From assembly GCA_047621865.1 (NCBI GenBank), contig JBLHON010000001.1:1-39351 (forward strand): a stretch of DNA of 39,351 nucleotides. Reading direction: 5' to 3'. The first letter of the stretch is position 1. Each line of letters opens with the position of its first letter. Below, piece by piece: positions 11,844 through 39,202 of the stretch. Origin of the DNA: Crocinitomicaceae bacterium (GTDB lineage Bacteria; Bacteroidota; Bacteroidia; Flavobacteriales_D; Crocinitomicaceae). Position numbers and translations under genes: made by a program. The notes under the pieces are model-generated. The model made no database searches, was not told the DNA's origin, and was given only the letters and a program-made list of their open reading frames with translations.

Positions 11844-11989
11844 TCTATAGTACAAAGACGTAAAAATAATTAAAACGTTTGCCCAAACCGATACAAATTT
11901 TAAGCCAACATTCCATATTATAGTTTGTTAACGAATGAAATCACAATTTATTTGCTGGAATCCTATTAAATCGTGAGTTTTGCACCAGC

Positions 11990-20370: not shown

Positions 20371-21120
20371 ATGAGTCTTTTAGAAAAAATTAACCTAGAT
20401 ATTACTCCAAAGCACATCGCCATCATAATGGATGGAAATGGTCGTTGGGCGCAGCAACAAGGTGAAGAACGGTTGTTTGGGCACAATTTTGGCGTAGAAT
20501 CAGTTCGTGAAACACTAAAGGCTGCTCAAGAGATTGGAGTGAAATATCTTACCCTCTATGCCTTCTCCACTGAAAATTGGAATCGCCCGAAAGAAGAAGT
20601 TGATGGTTTAATGGATTTATTAGTTCATACAATAAGCCATGAAGTAGAGGAGTTAGATAAGAGTGATGTCGTAATTACAAGCATTGGAGATATTGAAGGA
20701 CTTCCAGAATCATGTCAGCATGAATTAAAAGAAGCTTTTGAGACGACAAAGAATAATACAGGCATTCAGTTGGTGCTAGCGTTGAATTATAGCGCCAAAT
20801 GGGAACTTGTAAATGCGACACGCGAAATTGCTCGTGAAGTAAAGGCCGGCACTATCGCCCTTGAGGATGTGAACGATGAACTTATCTCGAATATGCTTTC
20901 AACGAAAGATATTCCAGATCCAGAATTGTTGATTCGTACAAGTGGTGAGCATCGGGTAAGTAACTTCTTGCTCTGGCAAATTGCTTATGCTGAGTTTCAT
21001 TTTACTGATGTGCTTTGGCCCGATTTTAAACGAGAAGATTTATATAAGGCAGTAGTCGATTATCAATCGCGCGAGCGAAGATTTGGTATGGTGTCTGCCC
21101 AAATAGAAAAGAACTTATGA
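20371..21120 (+). CDS. uppS: Undecaprenyl diphosphate synthase (cis-isoprenyl transferase)
   Basis: HIAIIMDGNGRWA, YLTLYAFSTENWNRP, IRTSGEHRVSNFLLWQIAYAEF, and C-terminal RERRFG. Confidence 0.95.
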   Translation: MSLLEKINLDITPKHIAIIMDGNGRWAQQQGEERLFGHNFGVESVRETLKAAQEIGVKYLTLYAFSTENWNRPKEEVDGLMDLLVHTISHEVEELDKSDVVITSIGDIEGLPESCQHELKEAFETTKNNTGIQLVLALNYSAKWELVNATREIAREVKAGTIALEDVNDELISNMLSTKDIPDPELLIRTSGEHRVSNFLLWQIAYAEFHFTDVLWPDFKREDLYKAVVDYQSRERRFGMVSAQIEKNL

Positions 21121-23816: not shown

Positions 23817-23880
23817 AAGTATTGGCACTTGTTCACAATAAATGTATTAAATTCGCCGTTCGGCTGAAAAACAATATAGC

Positions 23881-24393
23881 ATGAAAGTACTAGTTCTCGC
23901 CCTCACAATGATCTTTGGCATAGGGTTTGCCAATAGTCAGAAGTATGCATACATAGATTCAGATTATATTCTGGGAGAAATGCCAGAATATACTGCGGCA
24001 AAAGAGAAATTGGATAAATTAGCTGATCGTTGGACAAAGGATATTGAAGCACGTAGGCTTCTTGTTCAACAGAAGAAGGAAAATTTTGCCCGAGAAGAAG
24101 TTTTACTACCAGCGGAAGAAAAAAAGAAGAGAGAAGCTGAAATTGAAACATTAGAATTGGAAGCGATGCAAATGCAAAAGACGCGCTTTGGAGTGAATGG
24201 TGATTATTTCAATAAACGGAAAGAACTCATTAAACCAATCCAAGATCAAGTCTATGACGCGATGCAGAAGGTTGCAACAAAAAGAAATTACATTTTCGTG
24301 TTTGACAAAGCAAATCAGAGCAATTTGGTTTATGCTGACCCCAAAAATGATATTAGTAAGAGCGTAATAAAGGAAATAGAGAACGCAAATTAA
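23881..24393 (+). CDS. OmpH/Skp-family periplasmic chaperone
   Basis: 170 aa with a signal peptide, YIDSDYIL, a long charged coiled-coil centre, and a position directly after bamA. Confidence 0.85.
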   Translation: MKVLVLALTMIFGIGFANSQKYAYIDSDYILGEMPEYTAAKEKLDKLADRWTKDIEARRLLVQQKKENFAREEVLLPAEEKKKREAEIETLELEAMQMQKTRFGVNGDYFNKRKELIKPIQDQVYDAMQKVATKRNYIFVFDKANQSNLVYADPKNDISKSVIKEIENAN

Positions 24394-24472
24394 GCCCTCT
24401 AGAATAAAGAGAAAACCAGTAACAAGCATTCGAATAAACACACTAAAAGTTCGAATCAATTAAAAAGAAAAG

Positions 24473-24985
24473 ATGAAAAAATTACTAGTAATATTATGTG
24501 TAGTGTTAAGTGCAGGATCTACGATGGCTCAATCAAGTATTGGTCATGTGAACTCACAAGCTTTATTGGACACGCTTCCTATGCGAAGAGTAGCATTGAA
24601 AAACTTCCAAATTTACGAGCAAAATGGAATGACAGAGTTGAGAGAGATGGAAGCAGACTTGAATGAAGGTATTGCAATCTTTCAGAAGAATCAGCCGAAC
24701 ATGTCACCAGTAATCATGAAAATTGAGCAGGAGAAATTGGAGAAAAAACGTCAGGCATTAATTGATAGAGACGAAGCATTCCAACAAGAATTGCAGGCAT
24801 ACTCACAAGAGCTCAATGTTCCAATTTTGCAAATGGTACAGAAAGCTGTTCAAACAGTATCTGATAGAAATAAATTGGATTATGTACTGGATGCAACGAG
24901 TGTTTTAATTGCAAATGGCAAAGACATTACGAATGAAGTGATCACTGAATTATTGAAATTAGACGCTGCAGCATCTCAACCATAG
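24473..24985 (+). CDS. OmpH/Skp-family periplasmic chaperone (second copy)
   Basis: 170 aa, signal peptide MKKLLVILCVVLSAGSTMAQ, coiled-coil core. It is the tandem partner of the previous gene, as is usual in Bacteroidota. Confidence 0.85.
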   Translation: MKKLLVILCVVLSAGSTMAQSSIGHVNSQALLDTLPMRRVALKNFQIYEQNGMTELREMEADLNEGIAIFQKNQPNMSPVIMKIEQEKLEKKRQALIDRDEAFQQELQAYSQELNVPILQMVQKAVQTVSDRNKLDYVLDATSVLIANGKDITNEVITELLKLDAAASQP

Positions 24986-25010
24986 ATTCTCGCTTTATCG
25001 GAAAGAATTT

Positions 25011-25039
25011 AGGCGCTTGTTTTCAAGCGCCTTTTTTTG
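25011..25039 (+). terminator. Rho-independent terminator after the second skp-like gene
   Basis: AGGCGCTTG-TTTT-CAAGCGCCT, a perfect 9-bp stem, followed by TTTTTTT. Confidence 0.85.
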
Positions 25040-25230
25040 TGCAGTTCTCGGTATGCTTATGCCGAAGCTTTAGCATAGGCACTACGAGCAAGGCTCTTCC
25101 CGATAGCTATCAGGACGAACTGACAACTTTCAATCTTTGTCAGTTCGAGTATCGCGTTCTTACGCGATGTATCGAGAACGACAATTTTAGTATTCTTCCA
25201 ACATCCAACATCCAACATCCAATAATCCAA
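25040..25230 (+). repeat. Composite intergenic repeat, copy B (GAAGCTT-loop hairpin, flank-hairpin-flank module, CATCCAA/TAATCCAA tandem array)
   Basis: TATGCT-tatgccGAAGCTTt-AGCATA hairpin (25052-25077). ACTGACA/TGTCAGT stem (25119-25144). TTGTCAGTTCGAGT + perfect hairpin ATCGCGT/TCTT/ACGCGAT + GTATCGAGAACGACAATTTT (25137-25188). Tandem TTCCAA CATCCAA CATCCAA CATCCAA TAATCCAA (25196-25230). Confidence 0.7.
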
Positions 25231-25249
25231 TCTTTCCTATCTTTACCCC

Positions 25250-26068
25250 ATGGGACCAATTGGTGTATTCGATTCTGGTTATGGTGGACTCACGATCTTA
25301 AATGATTTAAGAGAACGACTTCCACAGTATGATTATCTCTATCTTGGAGACAATGCACGAGCCCCTTATGGTACACGCTCGTTTGATGTTGTCTATGAAT
25401 TTACACTTCAGGCCGTCAACGAACTATTTGATCGTGGCTGCGAACTGGTGATTTTGGCATGTAATACAGCTTCTGCGAAAGCACTTCGAACGATTCAGAA
25501 GAAAGACCTTCCATTGATTGGCCCCAATAAACGTGTTCTGGGTGTCATTCGACCAAGTGCAGAAATAGTTGGCAGTTTTACTTCAACAAATGCAATCGGG
25601 ATACTTGCCACACAAGGAACTGTTAAATCGAGGTCCTACGAGATCGAGATTGGAAATTTTGCGCCAAATTGCAAAGTATATCAACAGGCTTGCCCTCTCT
25701 GGGTAACGCTCATCGAGAATAATGAACATGAGACAGATGCTGGAAGAGAGTTCATTCGACATGACGTAAAAGCGCTCCTATCTGAAAATAAACACATTGA
25801 CACATTAGTGTTAGGATGTACACATTATCCAGTCCTAAAATCATTTATAGAGTCGATCATTCCAAAGAATGTGCGTGTAGTTGCACAGGGAAAAATCGTT
25901 GCAAAGAGCCTAGATTCTTATCTAGATAGGCATCCAGAGATGGAAGAACAATGCACAAAAGGAGGAACTGTCCAGTATCTGACTTCCGAAAGTACCTCAG
26001 AGTTCGATCAAAATGCAGCGAAATATACAGATGATATAGTTCGGTCATCACACATTCAACTGCATTAA
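25250..26068 (+). CDS. murI: Glutamate racemase
   Basis: GVFDSGYGGLT, YLGDNARAPYG, and the catalytic Cys motifs LACNTAS and LGCTHYP. Confidence 0.95.
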   Translation: MGPIGVFDSGYGGLTILNDLRERLPQYDYLYLGDNARAPYGTRSFDVVYEFTLQAVNELFDRGCELVILACNTASAKALRTIQKKDLPLIGPNKRVLGVIRPSAEIVGSFTSTNAIGILATQGTVKSRSYEIEIGNFAPNCKVYQQACPLWVTLIENNEHETDAGREFIRHDVKALLSENKHIDTLVLGCTHYPVLKSFIESIIPKNVRVVAQGKIVAKSLDSYLDRHPEMEEQCTKGGTVQYLTSESTSEFDQNAAKYTDDIVRSSHIQLH

Positions 26069-26723: not shown

Positions 26724-29567
26724 ATGAAGTATCTAAAAATAGTTTCAGTCATTTTTGCGATAGCAGCTATGACAACGTCAGCACAAGCTCAGCTTTGCAG
26801 CGTTAGTATCTTACCAACGAATCCTGTCATTTTATGTGGCGATTCAGTTTCATTGCAAGCAGTTGGACTTTCTTCTATTCCCGCATTATCTACAGATTTT
26901 AATGGAGGTGCAATTGGAGCAGGTTGGCAAACGTCAGCAACATTGCTTTACAATAACCCATGTGGACCGTCTTTAGATGGTACTCCATCTGCTTGGTTCG
27001 GAAATGTTCCTTTACCGAGAACACTTACCACGAATGACTTCAATGTTACTTGTGGTGGTCTCGTATGTTTCGATCTTGACTTTGCAGGAGATGATGTTCC
27101 TGGTGGAGATTGCGAGGATCCAGATTTAACGAATGAGGGAGTTTTCTTCCGCTATTCGATTGATTTTGGAGCAACTTGGGTTGACATCTTTTATTTTACT
27201 GCAGTAGCTGGATATGCGAATGCATACTACCAATGGGATAATTATTGTTTCTCAATTCCAGCCGCAGCATGGGGGCCAAACACAATGTTCCAATGGGATC
27301 AGCCAAGTGCTTCGAGTAATGTGAATGATCACTGGGGAATTGATAATGTTGTTATCACTCCTTCTGATTGTGCATACTTATACGATTGGGCAAATATCCC
27401 TGGTGGAGATAATCCACAGATTCAGGTTGTATCTCCAATTTCAACTACCTCTTATCCGGTAATGTATTATGATACATTGCTTGTAGATTTTTGTTACGAT
27501 ACTGTAACGGTTATAGTAAATCCATTAGATGCAATTGTTACAACATCTGTAGATCCAATCCTTTGTGGTGGATGTGCTGATTTAAATGTTGGCATGGCTT
27601 TAGATCCTGTGGCAGGCCCATACTCTTATCTTTGGTCTTCAAATGTGGTCGATTCACTTATTGCAAACCCTCAGGTATGTTATGCAAATGGAACGAATAC
27701 CTATGTGGCTACGATATTGAATCTCACGACAGGATGTTCCGCCATAGACTCTGTCACGGTTGGGATAGCCCCACTGGATGCAGTGGTTACTTCTACAATT
27801 GATCCAATTTACTGTGGAGGATGTACAGATTTAGCTGCCTCATTCGTCTCGGATCCTTCTCCAGCGGCATATACATATTTATGGACGCCAAATGTCAGTG
27901 ATACATTAGCTCAAGGCCCAGAAGCCTGCCCTGCTGGAATCGATACGTATGTTGTTGAAATAACAAATACGGCTACAGGCTGTACCGCCATGGATTCAAT
28001 TACGGTTGATGTCCTTCCATTGAGTGCGGACGTCACGGCTGTATCAAATAACTTGCTGTGTGATGAATGTACGGATTTGAATGCTGTTATGCTTTTAGAC
28101 CCCGCACCAGCACCTTACGCCTATTCATGGTCGCCTGTTGTAGATGATCCTTTAATTCAATCGACATTTATCTGTCCAGGAAGTCAAGGAGGTACGTTCA
28201 ATGTAATTGCTACGATTACCAATACAGTTACTGGATGTGTAGCAACTGATTCAACATTGATTCTAGCAGAAACATGCGTCTGTGAATTCCTCACATTTAC
28301 TGCAGATAGCGTTTGTCAGCCTGGAGCTATATTTGACGTCATTGGTACCTATGAGCATGCTCATAGTCCAACAACTGGAACGATCGAAGTTACCGCGACC
28401 AATGCGTCAGGTTCTTACACAACGACAATTGTTCCTCCGTTTACGGACAGTACACTCTTTAATTACTTGATTGCTGGAATTCCAAATGATGGATCGCCAA
28501 CAACAGTAACAATACAATTTACAGATTCATTAATCTGCGTTTCAACCTTAGTAATTATGCCTCCACCACTTCCAACTGTTGTGAGTATTACAGGAGGAGC
28601 TGATTATTGTGATGGATTAACACCTGCAGACGTTATGGTCGAAGTAACTGGAACAGGAACGATAACGATTAACTATACCTTCAATGGTGCTCCTATGACA
28701 ATTACTACAGGAGCTGGCTCAGTTTCACTGGGTAATGCTGAAGGAACATATGTGATCACAGGTATCTCTGATAATTCCTGCTCTAATTTTGCTGCTGGAT
28801 CTGATGTGATTAATGTTTTCCAAGCTGCAACAATTACTGCAGGAGTTGATGTTGAAGTTTGTTATGGTGGGTTATCAGTTCTTAATGGTCAAGGTGGAGT
28901 ATCTTACACATGGGATAACGGCCAAGTGAATGGAGTCCCATTCGTTGCTGGAACAACTACCACGTACACAGTTAATGGAACGGATTTGAACGGCTGTACA
29001 GGAACAGATCAAGTAACGGTCATTGTTCATGAATATCCTGATGCTCCATGGGTATCACCTGATGGCGAAACGTACTGTTTAAATACTGGTTATGCTCCGT
29101 TTATGACAGATGGATCAGGAACGATCTATACTTGGTACTCAGATGCTGGTTTAACAAATGTTATTGGAAGTGGTCCATCTTTGGTTCCAGCTAGTATTGA
29201 AGGAACGAACACATATTACGTGACTCAGACTGAAAATGGTTGTGAAGGTGAAGCAAGTCCAATTGACATCTCATTCGAGAACTGTGAAGGAATCCTTGAG
29301 ATGCCAAACGTAATCACGTTTAATGGCGATTTCACGAATGACTTCTTTACGCCAATTCAAGTTGAAAACATGGTGTCAATGCATACATTAATCGTCAATC
29401 GTTGGGGGAACTTTATCTTTGAAACTGACGACATGCAGATCAACTGGATGGGATTAAATGCATCTGGAACGCCTGTTGAAGAAGGAACGTATTTCTGGAA
29501 GGTGAATTACACTGACATTGCAGGAAACAAAATCCTTGTTCATGGATTTGTAGAAGTTGTAAAATAG
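26724..29567 (+). CDS. Large secreted multidomain protein with T9SS type-B C-terminal domain
   Basis: Signal peptide, then a MAM/laminin-like N-domain (FNGGAIGAGWQ...HWGIDNVVI). Three ~83-aa tandem repeats and Ig-like modules follow. The terminal block is MPNVITFNGDFTNDFFTP..VNRWGNFIFE..W.G.N..G..V.EGTYFWKVNY. Confidence 0.85.
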   Translation: MKYLKIVSVIFAIAAMTTSAQAQLCSVSILPTNPVILCGDSVSLQAVGLSSIPALSTDFNGGAIGAGWQTSATLLYNNPCGPSLDGTPSAWFGNVPLPRTLTTNDFNVTCGGLVCFDLDFAGDDVPGGDCEDPDLTNEGVFFRYSIDFGATWVDIFYFTAVAGYANAYYQWDNYCFSIPAAAWGPNTMFQWDQPSASSNVNDHWGIDNVVITPSDCAYLYDWANIPGGDNPQIQVVSPISTTSYPVMYYDTLLVDFCYDTVTVIVNPLDAIVTTSVDPILCGGCADLNVGMALDPVAGPYSYLWSSNVVDSLIANPQVCYANGTNTYVATILNLTTGCSAIDSVTVGIAPLDAVVTSTIDPIYCGGCTDLAASFVSDPSPAAYTYLWTPNVSDTLAQGPEACPAGIDTYVVEITNTATGCTAMDSITVDVLPLSADVTAVSNNLLCDECTDLNAVMLLDPAPAPYAYSWSPVVDDPLIQSTFICPGSQGGTFNVIATITNTVTGCVATDSTLILAETCVCEFLTFTADSVCQPGAIFDVIGTYEHAHSPTTGTIEVTATNASGSYTTTIVPPFTDSTLFNYLIAGIPNDGSPTTVTIQFTDSLICVSTLVIMPPPLPTVVSITGGADYCDGLTPADVMVEVTGTGTITINYTFNGAPMTITTGAGSVSLGNAEGTYVITGISDNSCSNFAAGSDVINVFQAATITAGVDVEVCYGGLSVLNGQGGVSYTWDNGQVNGVPFVAGTTTTYTVNGTDLNGCTGTDQVTVIVHEYPDAPWVSPDGETYCLNTGYAPFMTDGSGTIYTWYSDAGLTNVIGSGPSLVPASIEGTNTYYVTQTENGCEGEASPIDISFENCEGILEMPNVITFNGDFTNDFFTPIQVENMVSMHTLIVNRWGNFIFETDDMQINWMGLNASGTPVEEGTYFWKVNYTDIAGNKILVHGFVEVVK
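27519..28270 (+). repeat. Three in-frame tandem ~82-83-codon repeats inside the 947-aa protein
   Basis: Units start at 27519, 27768 and 28014. Each reads (N/A/L)PL(D/S)A.VT.....(I/L)(L/Y)C(G/D)(G/E)C.DL.......DP...(P/A)Y.Y.W.P.V.D.L......CP......Y....I.N..TGC.A.DS. Confidence 0.75.
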
Positions 29568-29590
29568 ATTGAACACTATATTTAAATGAA

Positions 29591-29620
29591 AAGAGCCGCT
29601 CAATGAGTGGCTCTTTTTTT
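29591..29620 (+). terminator. Rho-independent terminator (possibly bidirectional) between convergent genes
   Basis: AAGAGCCGCTC-AAT-GAGTGGCTCTT stem with one G-U pair on the plus-strand RNA, followed by TTTTTTT. An A-run precedes it, so it could also act on the convergent HTTM transcript. Confidence 0.8.
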
Positions 29621-29721
29621 ATGCGTTCTATTGTTGTCCGTGCCGAAGATTGCATTGAATCCACTCTCCACCCAAGGAGAAAAGAACATAGAAGCTTACT
29701 TTCTCCTCTTAGGAGGACATC

Positions 29722-31080
29722 TTACCAAACCACGTCAGTAGAATCTACTTCTAAGGCTTTTCCTGCATTTGAAAGAGGAGTAATCCAATCATTAATGCTC
29801 TTATGCTTTTTACGTTCTTCCAATAGATCAGTATTAGGATCGAACATATACGTTGCAGGTAATCCATTGAAGCCAACTTTGATCTTTGCTTTGACCCAGC
29901 AATTTTTAATTCTAAGTTTTTTCCCAATTGATTCTTTCGTGTATTCTGCAAATTGGAGAACCATCTGAGGAGAATGACACATCTGTGTTATCTCATCAGG
30001 ATATAAGAATTTGTTTAGTTCAATTACGTCAAATTGCTTGGTGTCAAGATCGAAGATTGCGAATTCAGCTTCTTCAATTGTGCGATGTTGAATTTTCATT
30101 CTCCAAGCGAATCGTTGTCCTTCTCCCGTCCAATCAGTATATCCTTCCATTCCATAATGTCTCAAGGGAAGGAAGATTTGTATGAGCACATAAACGCCAA
30201 TAAGTGCAACTCCAATTGTTTTGAGAGGCTTGACTTCCTTGAGCTCAGAAGCAGCAGATTTGATGATTTTTCGTTTCATCAAGAATTCCTTTAGCCAAGT
30301 TTGATCCACAAAAAGGAATATGGCAGAGATACTAAAAATTGGAAAAATGTAAATATCATCGAATAAGTAGGCATTACTAAGACTGAATAAGATAATGCCT
30401 ATAATTCCAATTTTTCTAGTCTTAGGGATCCAGAGTAGTGCACCAACAAGCAGATCAAAAAGGAAACCACCATAAGCGATGAAGCTCTGCATCCCAGCTG
30501 ATGCGAGAAATTCTGAGCCTGTTTTATGTGCCTTGATATTGAGGAGCTCCTGAACTGGGTGCATGTCAAACCAATAAGGATTTATTTTTGCAATCGCTCC
30601 AAAGAAGAAAACTACAACTATTTGGAATTGAAGTAAACGATAGTTCCATTGAGGGATGGTTGATCTATGTCGCTTCTTACGAACACTCAGAGCAGCATCA
30701 GCAGGCATAAAAATCATCATAAAAGCAATCAAGCAAACCAGGTAAAGGTGATTGTTGTAAAGCACTTGATCAAGAAAGAAAAAGTAACTGAAGCCAAGTG
30801 CAAAGAACCCCATTGCAAAACGATAGAATAGCCCTAATGTGATTAATATAGCACTAATCATGAGACAGGCCAGTAACACTTTCATAGTATCTAGCTCCAC
30901 TAGAGGAAGATCCATGAATTCGTAAGGAAAGATCACACCACGTGGATAGAAACTGTCAATGATCTTGATATCGTGAATCCTTTTGAGGTCCCACAACAAG
31001 ATTAATCCAAATAGAATTCGAAATATAGCAAGGCCATGTGGCGATTTTGGCTGATTTGCCCAATTCAAAATTTTAGTCAT
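29722..31080 (-). CDS. HTTM-domain protein, homologue of vitamin K-dependent gamma-glutamyl carboxylase
   Basis: The blocks GLAIFRILFGLILLWDL, LDQVLYNNHLYLVCLIAF, IPQWNYRLLQFQIVVVFFFGAIAKINPYW and FAWRMKIQHRT parallel, by eye, the conserved blocks I recall from metazoan GGCX. The protein has multiple TM helices. Confidence 0.85.
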   Translation of the reverse strand: MTKILNWANQPKSPHGLAIFRILFGLILLWDLKRIHDIKIIDSFYPRGVIFPYEFMDLPLVELDTMKVLLACLMISAILITLGLFYRFAMGFFALGFSYFFFLDQVLYNNHLYLVCLIAFMMIFMPADAALSVRKKRHRSTIPQWNYRLLQFQIVVVFFFGAIAKINPYWFDMHPVQELLNIKAHKTGSEFLASAGMQSFIAYGGFLFDLLVGALLWIPKTRKIGIIGIILFSLSNAYLFDDIYIFPIFSISAIFLFVDQTWLKEFLMKRKIIKSAASELKEVKPLKTIGVALIGVYVLIQIFLPLRHYGMEGYTDWTGEGQRFAWRMKIQHRTIEEAEFAIFDLDTKQFDVIELNKFLYPDEITQMCHSPQMVLQFAEYTKESIGKKLRIKNCWVKAKIKVGFNGLPATYMFDPNTDLLEERKKHKSINDWITPLSNAGKALEVDSTDVVW

Positions 31081-31227
31081 CCTTCTTCAGTTATTACCAT
31101 CATGATTTTGATCCTATCTCGACTATTTGGAGACCAATCAGTGCTACAATATAATAGAAACATATAAAATCACGGCCACCAAAGTTGAGCTTCTTACCTC
31201 ACTTGTATGAAAGTAACGATTAATCTT

Positions 31228-31593
31228 CTAGCTTTCTTTTGACCGCGCGTGCTCTAATTTACTCTGAATAGTCCACCCCACAAGAAGTGCACGTTGCTTA
31301 GCAGCTTCTGCTTTTGGTCCTTCAAAATGCTCGTCTACAGTTGTATTGAATAGAGAAAGCCATTGATCAAAATGTTCTTTGTTCAAGCGCATACGCATGT
31401 GCTTTTGAGTGACATCCGTTGTATATCCTGCTTCATCCAGCAGCACAAATGACCAAAAATTCACCATTCTTGGCTTGTGTGCTTCGAAGTTCATTGCTGC
31501 GAAAAATGGTGCTAAAAGAGAATCCACGAGTACCTTTCCATAGAACAAATCAACGAGATTTTGAATATCTTCCTTGGATTGAATGTCTGTCAT
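31228..31593 (-). CDS. Group III truncated haemoglobin
   Basis: 121 aa. DIQNLVDLFYGKVLVDSLLAPFF, FWSFVLLDEAGY, the candidate proximal His in TQKHMRM, and HFDQWLSLFNTTVDEHF all resemble the Ctb-type (group III) trHb pattern. The start overlaps the upstream gene stop (ATGA). Confidence 0.85.
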   Translation of the reverse strand: MTDIQSKEDIQNLVDLFYGKVLVDSLLAPFFAAMNFEAHKPRMVNFWSFVLLDEAGYTTDVTQKHMRMRLNKEHFDQWLSLFNTTVDEHFEGPKAEAAKQRALLVGWTIQSKLEHARSKES

Positions 31594-33233
31594 AATTTTC
31601 GGTGTTTCCAGATAGAACGCAGCAGTAAAAATGCAAAGATTCCAAACGGAATGAAGAAATAATTGTTTTGGGAGTAGTAGGCGAGAAAGTAAGAGGCCAG
31701 CACAAAAAGGGTGAGGATGAATTGTTGGCCGAGTGCATAGATTCGTTTGTCATTCTTTTGAGCATTGACGACCAACTCGCCACGATTTGCTTTTTTTAGA
31801 AAGGTGCTGATTTCAGCAGGCAATGTAAGTAAGGAAGTAAATTGCTGCTTAATTGCATCCAGGATCATTTTTCGAATTCCGCCATCTTTGGTGACCATGT
31901 TCTTGAGATAGGGCTTGATCACATCCATTGGATTCAATTCAGGAGCCACAGTAGCACTCGTTCCCATGATCAATTGAATTGTGCGATCCAGTAGAATCCA
32001 CTCTTTTGGAATTCGAATGGTTTTGGTTAAATCTTTGAGGCTGATTTCCTTGCGAAGATTATCTAAACTGCTCCCTTTGAGGTCGTCAAAACTCAAATCT
32101 TTTAGATTCATATTATTGATCTTCACTTCATTTTGAAGAAACTGACTGAGTGCCGCGATCAATTGTTGAGCAATTTTTTCTGATTCTTCATTGTTTCCAA
32201 TAAAGCCTAAATTCCGTAGTGAAACTAGAATTTTTTCCTGATCCTTTCGAAGAATTGCCTGTAGTAGAATGGGGATTTCAGCGCGCATTTCCTCACTCAA
32301 TACTGCTACAGCACCAAAATCCAGAAGAATGAGTTCACCAGCTTCATTTACAAAAATATTCCCTGGATGTGGATCTGCATGATAGAATCCATCTTCTAAA
32401 ATCATCTTGCAATAGACGAGAATCAATTTTTCAGTCAGCGCAGCTCGGTCAATTTTCCAGGTGTCTAATTGTTGGACATTTGTGATTTTAACGCCCTGTT
32501 CAAAGCTTGTCACTAAAATCCGCCTTGTTGAGTGCTCACTAATAACCTTGGGAATTCGAACGCCATCTATAGAAGCAATGTTTTCGGAAATAACACGCAT
32601 GGATTCGGCCTCCTTCTCGTAATTCAATTCATCCTGAATCATGTCTTTCACTTGCTCATAGACATATTCCATTCCTTGAACTCTGATCACCCACGAAACG
32701 CGCTTTATGAGTTTTTGGATAATCGTTAAATCAGCTTTTGCAAGTTCTTCAATATCCTGATGCTGCACTTTAACGGCTACGTGATCTCCAGAATTCAACA
32801 CAGCATGGTACACCTGACCAATCGAGGCAGAGGCAATAGGTGTTTCATTGAATTCTTTAAAGATTGAAGTAATTGGAGCACCTAATTCTTGTTCAATAAA
32901 TGATTTTGTCTCAGAGAAAGGACTTGCTGGAGCATCATCTTGGAGTGATTCCAGCGTGTCCATATAGGCGTCTGGTAAAATATGTGACAACGTCGAAATC
33001 AGCTGGCCTGCTTTTGTGAATAAGCCCTGTAGTTCTAGAATTGCTGCTTTCACTCGAGCGGCATTCTTGGCGTTCAATTTTCCAATTCTGCGCTCGTAAT
33101 AAGCTTCACCAAAGATTTTTTTTCTTAGGAATAAGAATGAATAACTGAAGAGAAGTTGATTGGTTAGGCGAAACGCTTTTCTCGATCTTTTCCGAACAGA
33201 TGTACGTGCTTTCATACATGCCATTTTCAGCAT
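31590..33233 (-). CDS. ABC1/UbiB-family atypical protein kinase (AarF domain) with C-terminal TM helices
   Basis: PIASASIGQVYHAVL..GDHVAVKVQH, the catalytic HADPHPGNIFV and LLDFG. The hydrophobic C-terminus is FILTLFVLASYFLAYY..FIPFGIFAFLLL. Alternative ATG starts lie 3 and 6 codons downstream. Confidence 0.9.
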   Translation of the reverse strand: MLKMACMKARTSVRKRSRKAFRLTNQLLFSYSFLFLRKKIFGEAYYERRIGKLNAKNAARVKAAILELQGLFTKAGQLISTLSHILPDAYMDTLESLQDDAPASPFSETKSFIEQELGAPITSIFKEFNETPIASASIGQVYHAVLNSGDHVAVKVQHQDIEELAKADLTIIQKLIKRVSWVIRVQGMEYVYEQVKDMIQDELNYEKEAESMRVISENIASIDGVRIPKVISEHSTRRILVTSFEQGVKITNVQQLDTWKIDRAALTEKLILVYCKMILEDGFYHADPHPGNIFVNEAGELILLDFGAVAVLSEEMRAEIPILLQAILRKDQEKILVSLRNLGFIGNNEESEKIAQQLIAALSQFLQNEVKINNMNLKDLSFDDLKGSSLDNLRKEISLKDLTKTIRIPKEWILLDRTIQLIMGTSATVAPELNPMDVIKPYLKNMVTKDGGIRKMILDAIKQQFTSLLTLPAEISTFLKKANRGELVVNAQKNDKRIYALGQQFILTLFVLASYFLAYYSQNNYFFIPFGIFAFLLLRSIWKHRKL

Positions 33234-33357
33234 TGCAAAGTTGCAATAGCATACTTTAAAAGTAAGTTTCAGAGGGGAATATTCCTATCATATTCTCGAC
33301 AAGAAATGTTAATTCAGTGGATCTAATTCCAAGTGATTAAACGGGTGGAAATTTTTC

Positions 33358-34086
33358 CTAGTCCTTCTCACTTACAGCAGGCTCTTCTGGTTCAGCTGTA
33401 GAGGGAGTTTTAGAGAATGAAAATAGCCAATCGTACATATCATCTTTGCGAAATTCGCGCTCCATGCTTCCGTGATTGGCGCCAGCAATTTCTTTGTAGA
33501 TCAGGTTTGAACCTCCATTGCACGCTTTGATTGCCTTAACGATCTTCCGTGATTCAGTAACTGGTACAGGCTTGTCTGCTGTGCCATGTTGAATCCACAA
33601 TGGAACTTCAGCAAGATTACACGCGTCAGTTGATTTTCCGCCACCACATAATGCCACTCCAGCAGCTATTTTAGTTGGATGTTTCCCTGTGAAATGCAAA
33701 GTGCCGTAACCTCCTAAACTCATTCCACACACATACACACGATTTGTATCAGTTGCGTATTGCGCTTGAACATCCTCCAGTAGTTTCAAAAGCTTGTCAG
33801 GATTCCATGAAGAACCAGAGGGAACTTGGGGAGCGATTACAATAGCCGGAATCTGGCGACCTTTTCCGATTTCACAAATAACGCCATAGCTTTTTACTTT
33901 ATTCAGGTCCGTTCCAGATTGACTTCTACCATGAAGAAAGATCAATATTGGTGGGTTCGATTTTAAGATACTATCTGCTGGAAGGTTGATCCAATAATTG
34001 TAGGATGACTTCCCTTTAACAGTTGACAATTGTGCTGAAACCGAAAAGGTAAGCGTTAAAAAAGCGAGAAAGAAAGCAATTTTCAT
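33358..34086 (-). CDS. Secreted alpha/beta-hydrolase (carboxylesterase / PHB-depolymerase-like esterase)
   Basis: Signal peptide MKIAFFLAFLTLTFSVSAQ, an oxyanion region ILIFLHG, the nucleophile elbow GMSLGG, and a late His (GANHGSM). Confidence 0.8.
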   Translation of the reverse strand: MKIAFFLAFLTLTFSVSAQLSTVKGKSSYNYWINLPADSILKSNPPILIFLHGRSQSGTDLNKVKSYGVICEIGKGRQIPAIVIAPQVPSGSSWNPDKLLKLLEDVQAQYATDTNRVYVCGMSLGGYGTLHFTGKHPTKIAAGVALCGGGKSTDACNLAEVPLWIQHGTADKPVPVTESRKIVKAIKACNGGSNLIYKEIAGANHGSMEREFRKDDMYDWLFSFSKTPSTAEPEEPAVSEKD

Positions 34087-34100
34087 TTGTTGAATTTTGA

Positions 34101-34108
34101 CAAAAGTA
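34101..34108 (-). promoter_or_regulatory. Bacteroidota -7 promoter motif (TACTTTTG on the minus strand) for the esterase gene
   Basis: Exact TAnnTTTG match on the minus strand, 14 nt upstream of the ATG at 34086. Confidence 0.4.
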
Positions 34109-34177
34109 GGCGTTATCTCTACACTAATAAGCGAAAAATAGTTAATTGGTACAATTTCTCATGGATTGAGGAGCATG

Positions 34178-36400
34178 TTAAACCACTAATAAATCAGCAT
34201 CTCGAAGAGCCAAAATTGGTCTAGAGTACCAGAAAAGTTCAAATTCACTGAATTGTTTTTCGAAGTCAGTTTTGAGCTCCTCCAGTGTGAGTTCTGCATC
34301 ATTATAGATTGAAAGTGTCGGTAATTGATTCAGAAACCATTCACCTTGATCACGTTCCATTTCAACAACAACACTTTCTTTTTTCCCGTGAATGGTGAGC
34401 TCAATCATGTCCAGTGTCTTGCCATGTTTGGTCATTGTATAGTCTGACACCAATGGTTTTCGACCCAACCAGATTGGTTTAGCACTCGGCTTACTCATTG
34501 TCATTAGTTCATCTTCAAGACATTTTTCAATGTAGTCTGGGTGAATTGTCGTGGCTGGAGTGCTAAAATCAAACCATTCGCCAATGTAAATCTCAAAGCC
34601 AATTCCATGCATGAAATTCAGGAGTGATTTCTTAAGCCCAAAACTAAATTTATCGTGATCGATTCCTGTTTTATCTGTGAACTCAAGATCATTATTGGCA
34701 AAAGAGATCTCTTTATATGCTGGAGTGACTCCATATTTTTCTGGCTCCTGACCAACTGGGCTGTGTGTCGTCAAAGCAAATTGATGCCAAAAACCAGATT
34801 GAATAATTCCAATTTCGAAGAGCTGTCTTACCATTTCCAAGCTATCTACAGTTTCTTGAATGGTTTGAGTTGGATAGCCATACATGAGGTAAGCATGCAC
34901 CATGATCCCGGCATCTGTCAAATTTTGCGTCACGCAAGCGACTTGTTCAACGGTCACACCTTTGTCGATTAACCCCAATAATCGGTCTGAAGCAACTTCT
35001 AACCCACCAGAAATGGCAATGCAGCCAGAAGCTTTTAAGAGCACACAGAGATCTCTTGTGAAACTTTTCTCGAAGCGAATATTTGTCCACCAAGTAAACG
35101 TGAGTTTTCGCCGAATAATTTCAATTGCAACTGCTCTCATTAAAGCTGGTGGTGCTGCTTCATCCACGAAATGAAATCCAGATTCTCCTGTTTGGGTACT
35201 AATCTCTTCCATCCGATCTACCAGAAGATTTGCTGCAAGTGGCTCGTATCGTTTTATATAATCGAGTGAGATATCACAGAATGTGCATTTCCCCCAGTAG
35301 CAGCCATGTGCCATAGTAAGCTTATTCCATCGACCGTCACTCCAAAGGCTGTGCATTGGATTAGCAATTTCAATGACGGAAATATATGCATCAAGGAGAA
35401 GATCAGCATAGTCAGGTGTACCTATATCAGCTTGATTGTAATCTGCCTGAGACGCATTGTTTTTATAGATTACTTCGTCGTTTTCGCAAATAAATGTTCG
35501 CTTGAAGGTTTGATTATCTCCGTTCGTTCCAAGGGATTCAAAGATTAATTCGATCGGCAATTCACCATCATCCAAGGAGATAAAATCGAAGAATTCAAAA
35601 ACTCTCGAATCGCTCACTGATCTCAATTCTGTATTCGGGAATCCCCCACCCATGGCTATTTTAATGTTCGGGTAATTTGATTTAATGAATTGAGCACAAC
35701 GAAAAGCACTGTAAAGATTGCCTGGAAATGGGACAGAAAAACAGATTATTTTAGGCTCGTGAGCTTTAATTTGAACCTCGAGAAGTTCGAGTGTGATTGT
35801 ATCAATATACGTAGACTCATTTGAGAGTAGAGCATAGAGCTCATCAAAATTATTGGCACTCGTTCCTATACGTTCGGCATATCTGCTAAATCCAAAATTG
35901 TCATCAATACATTCGATAATGAAGTCAGAGATATCTTCCAAATAAAGGGTCGCTAAATGCTTTGCCTTGTCCTGCATTCCCATATTTCCAAAGGCCCATT
36001 CAAGATCATCAATTTCATCAAAACGACCTGCTTCAGGAAGAAGATTCCGTGTGCAAATTTGTCTCGCCAAGGTTTGATTTTTGCCTTGGAGGAAGGAAAT
36101 AACGGCATCAATGCTCGTTAGATAATCATCCTTAAGTGCGTGAATTCGCTCGGCATTTTCCGATTGAATTCGATCTGATTCATAGGCAGTATCAAAAATG
36201 TGTGTTAAGCTTGAAACGGAAAAAAGTTTGAGAATGACCTCTATTCCCAAATCCATTTGGAATGAAGTATATCCCTTCGTATTTAGAAATCCCTTGAGAT
36301 ATGCCGTTGCCGGGTAGGGGGTGTTGAGCTGTGTAAATGGAGGTGTTATAAGTAAGAAGTCTTTCACCGTGGAATCGATTAAATGGCTTGCAAGATACAT
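34178..36400 (-). CDS. B12-binding-domain radical SAM protein (class B-like), ~740-750 aa with uncharacterised C-terminal extension
   Basis: The N-terminal Rossmann-like module reads LLITPPFTQLNTPYPATAYLKGFL ... IICFSVPFPGNLYSAFRCAQFIKSNYPNIKIAMGGGFPN. The cluster motif is HGCYWGKCTFCD. The TIM-barrel region contains SGFHFVDEA and ISGGLEVASDR. I prefer the ATG at 36400; the track start 36430 is TTG. Confidence 0.85.
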   Translation of the reverse strand: MYLASHLIDSTVKDFLLITPPFTQLNTPYPATAYLKGFLNTKGYTSFQMDLGIEVILKLFSVSSLTHIFDTAYESDRIQSENAERIHALKDDYLTSIDAVISFLQGKNQTLARQICTRNLLPEAGRFDEIDDLEWAFGNMGMQDKAKHLATLYLEDISDFIIECIDDNFGFSRYAERIGTSANNFDELYALLSNESTYIDTITLELLEVQIKAHEPKIICFSVPFPGNLYSAFRCAQFIKSNYPNIKIAMGGGFPNTELRSVSDSRVFEFFDFISLDDGELPIELIFESLGTNGDNQTFKRTFICENDEVIYKNNASQADYNQADIGTPDYADLLLDAYISVIEIANPMHSLWSDGRWNKLTMAHGCYWGKCTFCDISLDYIKRYEPLAANLLVDRMEEISTQTGESGFHFVDEAAPPALMRAVAIEIIRRKLTFTWWTNIRFEKSFTRDLCVLLKASGCIAISGGLEVASDRLLGLIDKGVTVEQVACVTQNLTDAGIMVHAYLMYGYPTQTIQETVDSLEMVRQLFEIGIIQSGFWHQFALTTHSPVGQEPEKYGVTPAYKEISFANNDLEFTDKTGIDHDKFSFGLKKSLLNFMHGIGFEIYIGEWFDFSTPATTIHPDYIEKCLEDELMTMSKPSAKPIWLGRKPLVSDYTMTKHGKTLDMIELTIHGKKESVVVEMERDQGEWFLNQLPTLSIYNDAELTLEELKTDFEKQFSEFELFWYSRPILALRDADLLVV

Positions 36401-36458
36401 CGAATAACTCGTTGTCTCGCACGGATACAAACTTTAGCTTATTTATTCATCTCATGGA

Positions 36459-37785: not shown

Positions 37786-38937
37786 TTAATGCATTAGAAC
37801 CAAGCTCTCATTAACAGGAACTTGATCCAATGTACCAATAATCAAATATGTTCCATTTGGAAGCGCGTTCAAATCGTTTGCTCCCGAATTCAAGCTAGGT
37901 ACAAGCACATTTCCTAAAAGATCAATCAATTGAAGGTCCACAGAGGTTCCATCAAATGCGATCTGCACAAAACCATTAGAAGGATTTGGGGAGACAGAGA
38001 TTGCCGCTAAATTGCTTTCCTTAATTCCAACAGGTGCATTTACACTCCATCCAATATCTGTGAGAGCTGCCATTAATAGTGGACCTGGTGTATGTTGAAC
38101 TTCATTGTTGGTGAGATATGGAGTGAGAAGTCCATTCCCAGATGCGGGCGTGAATATTGCCTCGTCAAAATGCTGCAGACTTGATCCTCCTTCAAAAGTT
38201 GCTGGAGCAAATATTTGAGCTGACGTCCCTCCATTTTCCAGAACAGTAGCTGGGCCAGTAAAGAATATATCATTTGACTGAAATTCTGTTCCTAGAGCAG
38301 TTGATAAGTTTGGAAAAATGAGCGTGTTTGCCAATTGCTGTGATGACCCATTCACTAAGAAGTAGTCCCAAATAGATGGTAATCCGCCCAAGACTGGAAA
38401 CGGGAAAGAAGTAACGAGAGGAAGGATACTCGTTGCGTCAATGGTTCCAAATGATCCTACTCCAACGTCATATTTTGTCAATGACATAGCGCCAAGTCCA
38501 TGGGCAATTTCATGCATGAAAACGGTGATAAAATCATATTGTCCGGGTCCAGGAAGTCCGTCCAAACCAAAATAATAATTCACTGAGCTGTTCACATAAA
38601 TATCCATGTCGAATTCGCCTATATTCAATTCATTACTTGCGATTGAATTCGCCAAACTACTTGCATACCACCATCCGTTGAATGGAGCTCCAACAAAATC
38701 AAGTTCTCCATTTGGAAGGGTTGTAGCAAGTGGACCTGCCGCGGAAAGGTCTGTATAAATAACATTGACCTTTATTGGAATCGTTGAATTCAGGTATTGA
38801 CTCCAAATAGTTCCAGTAAAATCAATGGCTGCATCAATTGTAGGTGTTGTTCCCGTTTTAGTCATTGTAAACGAGGATTGAGAAAAAGAGGAAAGAACGC
38901 AAATGCTCATTCCAAGCGACAGAAGAATAGCTTTCAT
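37786..38937 (-). CDS. Secreted HExxH zinc-metalloprotease-like protein with T9SS type-A C-terminal sorting domain
   Basis: The ATG at 38937 gives signal peptide MKAILLSLGMSICVLSSFSQ. FITVFMHEIAHGLGAMS carries the HExxH motif (nt 38500-38514). The C-terminal ~80 aa (ISVSPNPSNGFVQIAF...LPNGTYLIIGTLDQVPVNESLVLMH) looks like a Por secretion tail. Confidence 0.8.
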   Translation of the reverse strand: MKAILLSLGMSICVLSSFSQSSFTMTKTGTTPTIDAAIDFTGTIWSQYLNSTIPIKVNVIYTDLSAAGPLATTLPNGELDFVGAPFNGWWYASSLANSIASNELNIGEFDMDIYVNSSVNYYFGLDGLPGPGQYDFITVFMHEIAHGLGAMSLTKYDVGVGSFGTIDATSILPLVTSFPFPVLGGLPSIWDYFLVNGSSQQLANTLIFPNLSTALGTEFQSNDIFFTGPATVLENGGTSAQIFAPATFEGGSSLQHFDEAIFTPASGNGLLTPYLTNNEVQHTPGPLLMAALTDIGWSVNAPVGIKESNLAAISVSPNPSNGFVQIAFDGTSVDLQLIDLLGNVLVPSLNSGANDLNALPNGTYLIIGTLDQVPVNESLVLMH

Positions 38938-39202
38938 ACTGAATATTATCATTAATGATGAGGTAAGGTACTGAGAATAATCTTCATTCTGATGGATACA
39001 ACTCTGGCTGCTTTTAGTTAGAATGCTCATAATCAGTTGGACAGGTTAAAAAGAAGGTGTTCACCTATTCTAGAGCGCTTAATTTATGCTACGAAACCCA
39101 GAATTAGTATGTAACCAATGGACAAGAATAAGTTTATTAGTCACCAAGAACAATAAAACGATACCCGAATAGTTTATTATTTTACCACTCGTAAATCTAC
39201 CA

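Follow-up and report, generated by a model that had tools for sequence, protein, structure and literature searches.

A short GGCX-like protein encoded beside an ABC1–truncated haemoglobin gene pair in a Crocinitomicaceae bacterium: families, active-site residues and gene neighbourhood

[quoted passage not shown] Lys218, Trp223 and Asp263 act in deprotonation of the hydroquinone (PMC12647623), Asn290, His287 and Ser300 are ligands of the quinone head group (PMC13187478), Asn159 and His160 hold the substrate carboxylate, Phe299 belongs to the CO2 pocket, Tyr395 and Arg436 anchor the Glu/dipeptide, and the propeptide is bound in a cleft formed by clamp A and clamp B. Bacterial orthologues, that of Kordia algicida among them, have already been published as conserving the GGCX catalytic residues. 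One bacterial HTTM/GGCX-like protein, MloH of malonomycin biosynthesis in Streptomyces, is a proven vitamin K-dependent carboxylase (Law et al. 2018, as cited in PMC12647623 and bioRxiv 10.64898/2026.08.19.745780); its substrate is a non-Gla one, a precedent for altered recognition. By description MloH, whose gene belongs to a biosynthetic cluster and which carries a fused DUF5819-like region, is set apart from the HTTM protein considered here, whose gene, unlike that of MloH, is solitary and without PKS/NRPS context. An orthologue from Leptospira, i.e. from a different phylum, can by description be likened to it as a bacterial GGCX homologue, whose epoxidase site is said to be conserved, for which no Gla substrates are known, and which reportedly has epoxidase but not carboxylase activity.

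The UbiB/Coq8 kinases share with the ABC1 protein of the present locus the KxGQ motif, an Ala-rich loop, a catalytic Lys, the HxDxHPGN and DFG motifs and a C-terminal membrane anchor; the Campylobacter jejuni haemoglobin Ctb, about 30% identical to the globin of the locus, shares with that globin's family conserved Tyr, distal His, proximal His and Trp positions. The Ctb gene is not known to be adjacent to an ABC1 gene, and a search of the literature found no link between truncated haemoglobins and UbiB.

The window, i.e. the whole stretch of DNA analysed, comprises 39,351 nucleotides from a Crocinitomicaceae bacterium, and was compared with about 170 related loci, with flanks of 6–10 kb per locus. 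A first-pass annotation had proposed that its HTTM, ABC1 and globin genes form a module, which, had it held, would have placed bacterial homologues of GGCX in a physiological context for the first time. By this comparison, the adjacency of the three genes is, instead, a local accident in one small bacterial lineage.

The genes of the locus and their families

Open reading frames and Pfam matches agree with the identities given in the first-pass annotation to the three minus-strand genes, and the stop/start overlap and the intergenic distance that it had noted are both seen directly in the sequence (table 1).

Table 1. Features of the locus, with positions in the window.
Feature	Positions	Strand	Basis
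T9SS type B (CHU_C) secreted protein, Reelin subrepeat-B domain, 947 aa	26724–29567	+	Pfam + NCBIfam
HTTM + VKGC lumenal ('clamp A') protein, short GGCX-like membrane enzyme, 452 aa	29722–31080	-	ORF + Pfam
Globin-to-HTTM spacer, 147 nt	31081–31227	-	Read from sequence; without recognisable signal
Group III truncated haemoglobin, 121 aa	31228–31593	-	Pfam Bac_globin + family profile
ATGA, ABC1 stop codon overlapping globin start codon	31590–31593	-	Read from sequence
ABC1/UbiB-family atypical kinase/ATPase, C-terminal membrane anchor, ORF 547 aa	31590–33233	-	Pfam + motifs
Alpha/beta hydrolase (esterase-like), upstream of ABC1, context only	33358–34086	-	Pfam Peptidase_S9/Abhydrolase
B12-binding radical SAM protein, 750 aa	34178–36430	-	Pfam Radical_SAM + weak B12-binding

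The HTTM protein exceeds the Pfam gathering cut-off, which is 27.7 bits in both cases, for HTTM (192.5 bits, E = 1.3e-56) and for VKGC_lumenal_dom (112.7 bits, E = 1.9e-32), and no NCBIfam model matches it; in phmmer, human GGCX chains match its residues 4–436 (E = 1.7e-37). Its AF2 model (pLDDT 90.9, pTM 0.89) has 16 significant Foldseek matches in the PDB, all of them GGCX, with E down to 2e-22 and TMq of 0.67–0.84 (TMt only 0.55–0.59); the best of them (TMq 0.82–0.84) share its fold across the transmembrane domain, the cap, the LL9 loop and clamp A. Among bacterial relatives of the vitamin K carboxylase it is an ordinary one, of the 'short' GGCX-like form, in a family of 3,492 clusters at 50% identity (E <= 1e-3).

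The ABC1 protein matches Pfam ABC1 (PF03109; 247.6 bits, E = 1.3e-73) and carries the motifs KAGQ74, SASIGQV135, VAVKV152, HADPHPGN285 and DFG305 and a hydrophobic segment at 500–518, but it remains below the cut-offs of the UbiB equivalogs of NCBIfam (278.2 versus 487.55 bits for TIGR01982, 207.3 versus 667 bits for NF003404), so that the earlier assignment to the UbiB family stands for the ABC1 family and not for UbiB proper. Since the quinone of Bacteroidota is menaquinone, not ubiquinone, its lipid client would differ from that of UbiB. The public collection's gene call for an identical protein is 541 aa, as it is for most relatives, and the true start is probably Met7, at position 33215.

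The globin is recognized by Pfam Bac_globin (28.8 bits, cut-off 21) and by no NCBIfam model. The profile of its family finds Ctb (2IG3, 1.2e-16) as the best PDB match, the best group I protein reaching 4e-11, and the NCBI name of its relatives is 'group III truncated hemoglobin', in agreement with the group first proposed. Y18, H39, H65 and W78 are invariant across 25 relatives, and we take them, by their presumed helix positions, to be the Tyr, distal His, proximal His and Trp of Ctb. As for the other genes, every NCBIfam match of the B12-binding radical SAM protein is far under its cut-off, and a scan of 26 of the window's 27 ORFs of at least 150 aa revealed no VKOR-like gene.

Active-site residues of the HTTM protein

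The catalytic surroundings of GGCX are largely shared. In the alignment, N110, H111, K165, W170 and D209 of the HTTM protein correspond to N159, H160, K218, W223 and D263 of GGCX, and N236, F246, W326 and M328 to N290, F299, W399 and M401; the GAIAKINPYW block, whose Lys had been singled out in the first pass, faces GVKKLDADW, and K165 does match the catalytic K218. The site of hydroquinone deprotonation (K165, W170 and D209) and F246 of the CO2 pocket are present in 80 of 80 relatives, and the pair for the substrate carboxylate (N110 and H111) in 79, the remaining one being gapped there. As to the ligands of the quinone head group, N236 is invariant, His287 is replaced by Ser in the window and by Asn in most relatives, and Ser300 by Pro.

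Unlike GGCX, the protein has Gln (Q322) in place of Tyr395, within an ungapped W-T-x-G-x-[Y/Q]-x-[Y/F]-x-W-x-M block; Gln at this site belonged to the pattern by which the 80 loci were retrieved, but the independent alignment A1 also shows it, with a conservation of 90% or more. Arg436 stands opposite a variable position, i.e. this anchor is absent, and the Cys99–Cys450 pair is not conserved in the HTTM protein. The alignment stops at GGCX residue 505, with 16 window residues remaining, and the model contains one three-stranded sheet, fitting clamp A alone; in both, clamp B and the C-terminal domain are missing and, therefore, so is the propeptide cleft. With Tyr395 also missing, the protein would not recognize propeptides in the manner of GGCX. 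Thus, of the claim that the conserved blocks of GGCX are kept, the catalytic Lys and most of the active site stood, but Tyr395, Arg436, clamp B and the C-terminal domain did not. The short form, devoid of clamp B and carrying Gln where GGCX has Tyr395, constitutes a defined variant that is widespread among bacteria.

Gene neighbourhood across related loci

The ATG/TGA overlap of the ABC1 and globin genes is kept, with different flanking bases, in seven diverged loci (the window, L001, L002, L102, L106, L164 and L165), which supports the translational coupling that had been claimed for them. The pair is genuine and narrow, being limited to one Crocinitomicaceae-like sub-clade: ABC1 lies upstream of the globin in 2 of the 50 globin loci having at least 1.7 kb upstream, the remaining 78 globin loci gave zero ABC1 matches, and the commonest gene upstream of the globin encodes a hexapeptide/LbH protein (24/73 loci). 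ABC1 orthologues at 64–66% identity (L164 and L165) keep the overlap with the globin, with no HTTM gene within 6 kb, and those at 52–59% identity are without globin; L102 and L106 are also devoid of HTTM. A homologue of the T9SS Reelin/CHU_C gene, which in the window is convergent with the HTTM gene and is the conserved anchor of the surrounding block, directly follows the globin, with no HTTM gene between, in L001, L002, L102, L106, L120 and L164, and a homologue of the alpha/beta hydrolase is also found upstream of ABC1 in L106 and L165.

Of 80 Bacteroidota loci that carry a relative of the HTTM gene, two have ABC1 and globin genes within 10 kb of it and 78 lack them; when the count is confined to the 46 HTTM loci flanked on either side by 5 kb or more, there are again two positives. 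They are the closest relatives, L001 and L002 (71% identity), in which the order is HTTM > radical SAM > ABC1 > globin, unlike that of the window, HTTM being at the opposite end of the block. Relatives that are 70%, 64% and 61% identical (L161–L163) adjoin FolB, NUDIX, PRA-PH and TPR genes, with neither ABC1 nor globin near them, those at 56–60% identity adjoin recA, mutS and lepA, and ABC1 and globin were not found in the further HTTM loci L169–L172. L164 and L165 being negative as well, the globin–kinase–HTTM module proposed in the first-pass annotation fails across relatives, where the three genes are not co-located. In the window, L001 and L002, HTTM, B12-radical-SAM, ABC1 and globin genes are found within about 7 kb on one strand despite rearrangement, a shared grouping that could reflect selection rather than shared descent.

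The minus strand of the 147-nt gap contains no terminator-like hairpin, so that co-transcription of the globin and HTTM genes is possible in this genome. The gap folds no better than its shuffles (z = 0.87), the Bacteroidota -7 motif TAnnTTTG has zero exact matches in either gap, counts of promoter and terminator motifs over 29400–34300 are at or below shuffle expectation, and an Rfam scan of the whole window gave no match and, hence, no RNA element.

Possible functions of the HTTM protein and its neighbours

Most likely, the three genes function separately and became neighbours through lineage-specific rearrangement, the HTTM gene being a solitary, mobile member of the widespread short bacterial GGCX-like enzymes. 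ABC1 and the group III truncated haemoglobin would constitute a small translationally coupled pair adjoining a conserved block, which consists of the genes for the T9SS Reelin/CHU_C protein, an ORF of ~160 aa, murI and skp; the HTTM gene would, in this genome alone, have landed in a variable slot that has the globin on one side and the T9SS gene on the other. We infer the topology, chemistry and substrate class of the HTTM protein by analogy with human GGCX. It would be an inner-membrane enzyme with a periplasmic active site, and its quinone, unlike that of GGCX, would be menaquinone-6/7 of the bacterial inner membrane. Menaquinol would be deprotonated by Lys165, the counterpart of K218, which Trp170 and Asp209 would hold; O2 would then be added, yielding menaquinone epoxide and a strong base; the base would deprotonate a substrate whose carboxylate is bound by Asn110/His111; and the carbanion would receive CO2, positioned against Phe246. 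Given Gln for Tyr395 and the missing clamp B and C-terminal domain, the substrate would not be a propeptide-tagged Gla domain, and would be recognized differently and encoded elsewhere.

If the Leptospira orthologue is, as reported, an epoxidase only, the carboxylation step may not apply to the HTTM protein, which would then oxidize menaquinol with O2, the base or the oxygenation serving, e.g., quinone turnover or another deprotonation. The fully conserved residues of quinone deprotonation, the loss of the Glu-anchoring Tyr395 and Arg436 and of the propeptide clamp B, and an orthologue group without a conserved adjacent substrate gene are consistent with such a function; it is, however, rather unlikely, since the equivalents of the carboxylate-binding Asn159/His160 and of the CO2-stacking Phe299, invariant in the 80 relatives (but for the one gap), are difficult to account for unless a carboxylate substrate and CO2 are used, and MloH demonstrates carboxylation by bacterial members.

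In other Bacteroidota, paralogous HTTM copies are tightly operonic with genes for secreted FG-GAP/ASPIC repeat proteins. Such proteins account for 18 of 133 immediate HTTM neighbours versus 2 of 604 farther away, at gaps of -11 to 31 nt, and the linkage recurs in three or more sequence clusters, and in Bacteroidota that include cultured strains of Ulvibacter and Altibacter; a literature search found no HTTM–FG-GAP link. T9SS C-terminal-domain proteins make up 27% of immediate HTTM neighbours versus 10.8% at offsets of at least 3. Because iterative HMMs for type A and type B converged on each other, the two were pooled into one 'CTD' class, for which position served as an internal control. The ~3-fold enrichment is treated as weak, given how very frequent T9SS cargo genes are in these genomes (in the window, they make up at least 4 of the 27 ORFs of at least 150 aa, plus one weak match). 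The FG-GAP/ASPIC linkage offers a concrete place to search for the substrate of a short GGCX. There is a slim chance that the short GGCX-like enzymes of Bacteroidota are periplasmic menaquinone-dependent carboxylases of secreted clients, namely FG-GAP/ASPIC beta-propeller proteins and other T9SS cargo; if so, these would be the first bacterial Gla-type (or carboxy-Asp) proteins, the solitary copy of the window would be a trans-acting member of that system, and a common use of menaquinol and O2 could be why the HTTM gene came to lie beside the conserved ABC1–globin pair in three genomes.

Slimmer still is the prospect that the HTTM protein acts in the periplasm to modify secreted T9SS cargo, with the neighbouring 947-aa CHU_C/Reelin protein as a possible client in this locus. 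Both enrichments would fit, as would an active site that, by homology, may face the compartment crossed by such cargo, but the FG-GAP linkage is absent from the orthologue group of the window, genes for T9SS cargo are very common here, the neighbouring one is convergent, not operonic, with a homologue identically placed in HTTM-free loci, and the loci are not phylogenetically independent.

That globin, ABC1 and HTTM constitute one quinone/O2 module, in which the globin would deliver or sense O2, ABC1 handle menaquinone and HTTM consume menaquinol and O2, is very improbable and close to refuted by synteny: the theme is biochemically plausible, and the single strand, the ATGA overlap, the hairpin-free gap and the grouping shared with L001 and L002 all fit it, but those two loci have another order with a radical-SAM gene between, the 70%, 64% and 61% identical HTTM relatives are located elsewhere, four loci carry the ABC1–globin pair without HTTM, and 48 of the 50 globin loci that have enough upstream sequence carry no ABC1 there. 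The new context claimed for bacterial HTTM/VKGC homologues is therefore not real on the synteny evidence, and the locus adds one annotated member to each of three known families.

The B12-radical-SAM gene was considered as a conserved partner of HTTM and rejected, since it accounts for just 2 of the 77 downstream neighbours, those in L001 and L002. On the upstream side, a pyruvate carboxylase gene is found in five HTTM loci, all from one sequence cluster.

Identity and junctions of the three genes

The genes for the HTTM protein (GGCX-like), the globin and the ABC1 protein are three minus-strand open reading frames. At 31590-31593 the ABC1 TGA shares bases with the globin ATG in an ATGA, and 147 nt lie between the stop of the globin and the start of HTTM. 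ORF calls and the sequence itself confirm these features as the first-pass annotation had described them, and its reading of what the three genes encode was found to be correct by Pfam, phmmer and profile searches. The globin had been named as a group III truncated haemoglobin and, indeed, a profile of 25 relatives retrieves as its top match Ctb of C. jejuni (2IG3; 1.2e-16), itself of group III, above group I proteins, with the NCBI label of the relatives being 'group III truncated hemoglobin'. The assignment of the third protein to the UbiB-family kinases stands as far as the ABC1 domain and motifs are concerned (KxGQ, an Ala-rich loop, VAVK, HxDxHPGN and DFG, with a hydrophobic anchor at the C-terminus), but its score lies below the UbiB equivalog cut-off. 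The true start of the ABC1 protein is probably Met7 (33215), not 33233, because the public gene call for the same protein and most relatives are of 541 aa.

Features of the window and of loci from other genomes (L numbers) carrying relatives of its HTTM, globin or ABC1 gene
Feature	Position	Strand	Remarks
Clear T9SS-sorted proteins (CHU_C or Por_Secre_tail)	window 130-762, 4378-8442, 9468-11855, 26724-29567		four in 39 kb
Housekeeping cluster uppS-bamA-skp-skp-murI	window 20371-26068	+	left flank
HTTM gene	window 29722-31080	-	452 aa; Pfam HTTM 1.3e-56, VKGC_lumenal_dom 1.9e-32
Upstream ORF, 8 codons	window 31077-31103	-	
Globin gene	window 31228-31593	-	121 aa; Pfam Bac_globin 28.8 bits (cut-off 21)
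ABC1 gene	window 31590-33233	-	547 aa as longest ORF; Pfam ABC1 1.3e-73
B12-binding radical SAM protein	window 34178-36430	-	750 aa, ~190-aa N-terminal extension
Weak Por_Secre_tail match	window 37786-39030		below threshold
HTTM followed by radical SAM gene	L001:10001-13539; L002:6748-10322		
Hexapeptide/LbH homologue	L001:5416-5931		
Hexapeptide/LbH gene upstream of globin	e.g. L094:5381-5911, L117:5481-6008	as globin	within L081-L160
eCIS/phage-sheath-like genes	L164:479-5179; L165:1-3225		eCIS_core, Phage_sheath_1C, Pvc16_N
FG-GAP-adjacent loci	L013-L016, L018, L021, L022, L025, L043, L058, L060, L064, L065, L069, L071, L171		HTTM about 10001-11300 in most

On the minus strand of the globin-HTTM gap, a scan for terminator-like hairpins returned none; in the same gap the exact Bacteroidota -7 motif was not found, folding was no better than that of shuffled sequence and Rfam gave nothing. 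In the window genome alone, globin and HTTM may thus be co-transcribed. The small upstream ORF (ATG ATG GTA ATA ACT GAA GAA GGA TGA), the stop of which overlaps the HTTM start in a second ATGA, is probably due to chance.

Genomic context seen from each gene

The proposal that globin, kinase and HTTM protein form a quinone/O2 module is not supported by the organization of related genomes. Scanning one genome per species gave 80 HTTM loci (relatives at 29-71% identity, at most 10 kb per side; Bacteroidota throughout, where the record title names the taxon), against which the window's neighbouring genes were searched by tblastn. ABC1 and globin lie near HTTM in L001 and L002 only, the two closest relatives (71% identity), which makes 2 of the 46 loci whose flanks reach 5 kb or more to left and right, and their order is a different one: orf414 > HTTM > B12-radical-SAM > ABC1 > globin, then the convergent T9SS gene, with flanks equal to those of the window and HTTM at the other end of the block. 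Both genes are also absent from four extra HTTM loci (L169-L172). The HTTM relative at 70% identity has FolB on one side and an acetolactate-decarboxylase-like gene on the other (L162), those at 64% and 61% among PRA-PH, NUDIX and TPR genes (L161 and L163), and those at 56-60% adjoin recA, mutS, lepA or DUF2490. From these differing contexts it follows that the window's HTTM orthologue group is a solitary gene that changes genomic place.

In L001 and L002 the gene directly after HTTM encodes a 730-aa B12-binding radical SAM protein, the stop and start of the two overlapping in L001 (11353 vs 11356); in the window the two are separated by 3 kb, in which three genes lie. The window radical SAM protein scores far under the cut-off of every NCBIfam model, the best being those for RiPP C-methyltransferases and PhpK-type P-methyltransferases, and such a gene recurs near the globin in six loci.

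When 80 metagenome loci are viewed from the globin (relatives at 54-68% identity), ABC1 is directly upstream in L102 and L106 only, out of 50 loci whose upstream sequence extends for 1.7 kb or more. Far commoner there, and the commonest of all, is the gene of a 171-aa hexapeptide/LbH protein, probably gamma-carbonic-anhydrase-like, adjacent and on the same strand in 24/73 loci. Downstream of the globin, the T9SS Reelin/CHU_C protein and murI are the most frequent. The latter is often its convergent neighbour in other loci, and this recurrence indicates that the position of the globin is anchored to the uppS-bamA-skp-skp-murI cluster.

Orthologues of ABC1 at 66% and 64% identity (L164 and L165) keep the 4-nt overlap with the globin, HTTM and radical SAM genes being absent within 6 kb of the pair, and ABC1 orthologues at 59%, 54% and 52% identity stand without the globin. 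The coupling of kinase and globin put forward initially is borne out by the ATGA junction, which is kept in 7/7 ABC1-globin loci despite variation of the bases around it; it is real and narrow, its conservation being limited to a single Crocinitomicaceae-like sub-clade. HTTM does not belong to this pair. In L102, L106, L120 and L164 the globin is followed directly by the T9SS gene, with no HTTM between them, and in L165 the slot that HTTM holds in the window is filled by a different 321-aa ORF. The eCIS/phage-sheath-like genes of L164 and L165 are found a few kb upstream of ABC1-globin.

Fold and active site of the HTTM protein

Among PDB sequences, phmmer matches the HTTM protein with human GGCX only (1.7e-37; window residues 4-436 vs GGCX 51-505). 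An AlphaFold2 model (29 relatives; mean pLDDT 90.9, pTM 0.89) has 16 GGCX chains as its only significant PDB matches (E down to 2e-22), with best TM-scores of 0.82-0.84 when query-normalised and 0.55-0.59 when GGCX-normalised, a gap indicating that the protein spans about two thirds of GGCX. The model contains a single three-stranded sheet and the alignment ends at GGCX residue 505; this fits clamp A alone, the protein being devoid of clamp B and of the C-terminal domain. In GGCX, clamps A and B together form the propeptide cleft. The family comprises 3,492 clusters at 50% identity (E <= 1e-3), most members being of about 430-480 aa.

Residues were mapped on an alignment of the 80 relatives with human residues 51-505, their roles being taken from the GGCX cryo-EM papers (PMC12647623, PMC13187478). 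The 'GAIAKINPYW' block faces GGCX 'GVKKLDADW', and K165 is the counterpart of the catalytic K218. The conservation of GGCX blocks, previously judged by eye, holds for the catalytic residues: K165, W170 and D209 (GGCX K218, W223 and D263; hydroquinone deprotonation), N236 (N290; quinone carbonyl) and F246 (F299; CO2 stacking) are fully conserved, as are W326 and M328 (W399 and M401), and N110 and H111 (N159 and H160; substrate carboxylate) are found in 79/80 (one gap). It does not extend to Y395, the Glu/dipeptide anchor, which is Gln here (Q322), nor to R436 (opposite a variable position), H287 (S233; Asn in most relatives), S300 (P247) and the C99-C450 cysteine pair (absent; F51 and Y380). 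The Gln and the WRMK block belonged to the peptide pattern that retrieved the 80 loci, a caveat on their conservation; in an alignment of HTTM relatives gathered independently of that set, both are at least 90% conserved or invariant.

By homology, the enzyme would reside in the inner membrane with the active site towards the periplasm. Menaquinol would be deprotonated by Lys165 and, upon O2 addition, yield an epoxide and a strong base; the latter would take the proton adjoining a carboxylate held by Asn110/His111, and CO2, placed against Phe246, would then be added. As Tyr395 and the clamp cleft are missing, the substrate must be recognised in another way than Gla-domain proteins are. The genes adjoining the window's HTTM orthologue group encode no candidate substrate. 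An epoxidase-only role, as reportedly found for a Leptospira orthologue, is a less likely alternative.

GGCX-like enzymes are widely conserved in bacteria, the flavobacterium Kordia algicida being among the examples with intact catalytic residues, and MloH is cited as a functional bacterial carboxylase (Wu et al. 2025); in the model of a different HTTM protein given by a 2026 preprint, the clamp position is filled by a DUF5819 partner. Public annotation of HTTM relatives already reads 'vitamin K-dependent gamma-carboxylase'. Thus, HTTM, globin and ABC1 are each a further member of a known family, and the proposed new context fails. Among the papers searched, none connects truncated haemoglobins with UbiB/ABC1 or HTTM with FG-GAP proteins.

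Secreted-protein neighbours of HTTM genes

The sole lead worth pursuing is the FG-GAP linkage in related HTTM loci. No gene accompanies HTTM in all of the 80 loci, but secreted proteins are recurrent neighbours. The signal of FG-GAP/VCBS proteins, often with a UnbV_ASPIC domain or T9SS tail, is much sharper than that of T9SS tails in general: they make up 18/133 immediate HTTM neighbours vs 2/604 distant genes, a difference that the Fisher p-value overstates, since the loci lack independence. Of the 18, 15 share the strand of HTTM, at intergenic distances of -11 to 31 nt; these neighbours span three sequence clusters with differing gene orders, and the adjacency is found again in L171, fetched independently. 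Cultured strains with an HTTM>FG-GAP operon are Ulvibacter litoralis DSM 16195, Altibacter lentus JLT2010 and Ulvibacter antarcticus DSM 23424. The FG-GAP-linked HTTM copies are 28-40% identical to the window protein in the alignment, and single MAGs hold both types (L006 with L043 in JBLHYG01, L004 with L064 in JBLHVW01), one copy being window-type and solitary, the other FG-GAP/T9SS-linked and about 30% identical to the window protein. Therefore, the linked copies represent paralogous subfamilies, of which the FG-GAP/VCBS neighbours may possibly be substrates or partners.

Por_Secre_tail or CHU_C domains occur in 24/75 upstream neighbours of HTTM, and Por_Secre_tail in 12/77 downstream ones. 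Set against an internal positional control, T9SS-tail proteins are 27% of immediate neighbours vs 10.8% at offsets of at least 3, an enrichment that is weak since such genes are very common here. Those of the window, including the weak match, carry MAM, fn3, SprB, Calx-beta, PKD and Reelin-B domains. In L026, L028, L030, L034 and L035 the gene upstream of the GGCX-like one, divergent from it and on the opposite strand, encodes pyruvate carboxylase, an adjacency that probably reflects common descent, as all five loci belong to one sequence cluster.
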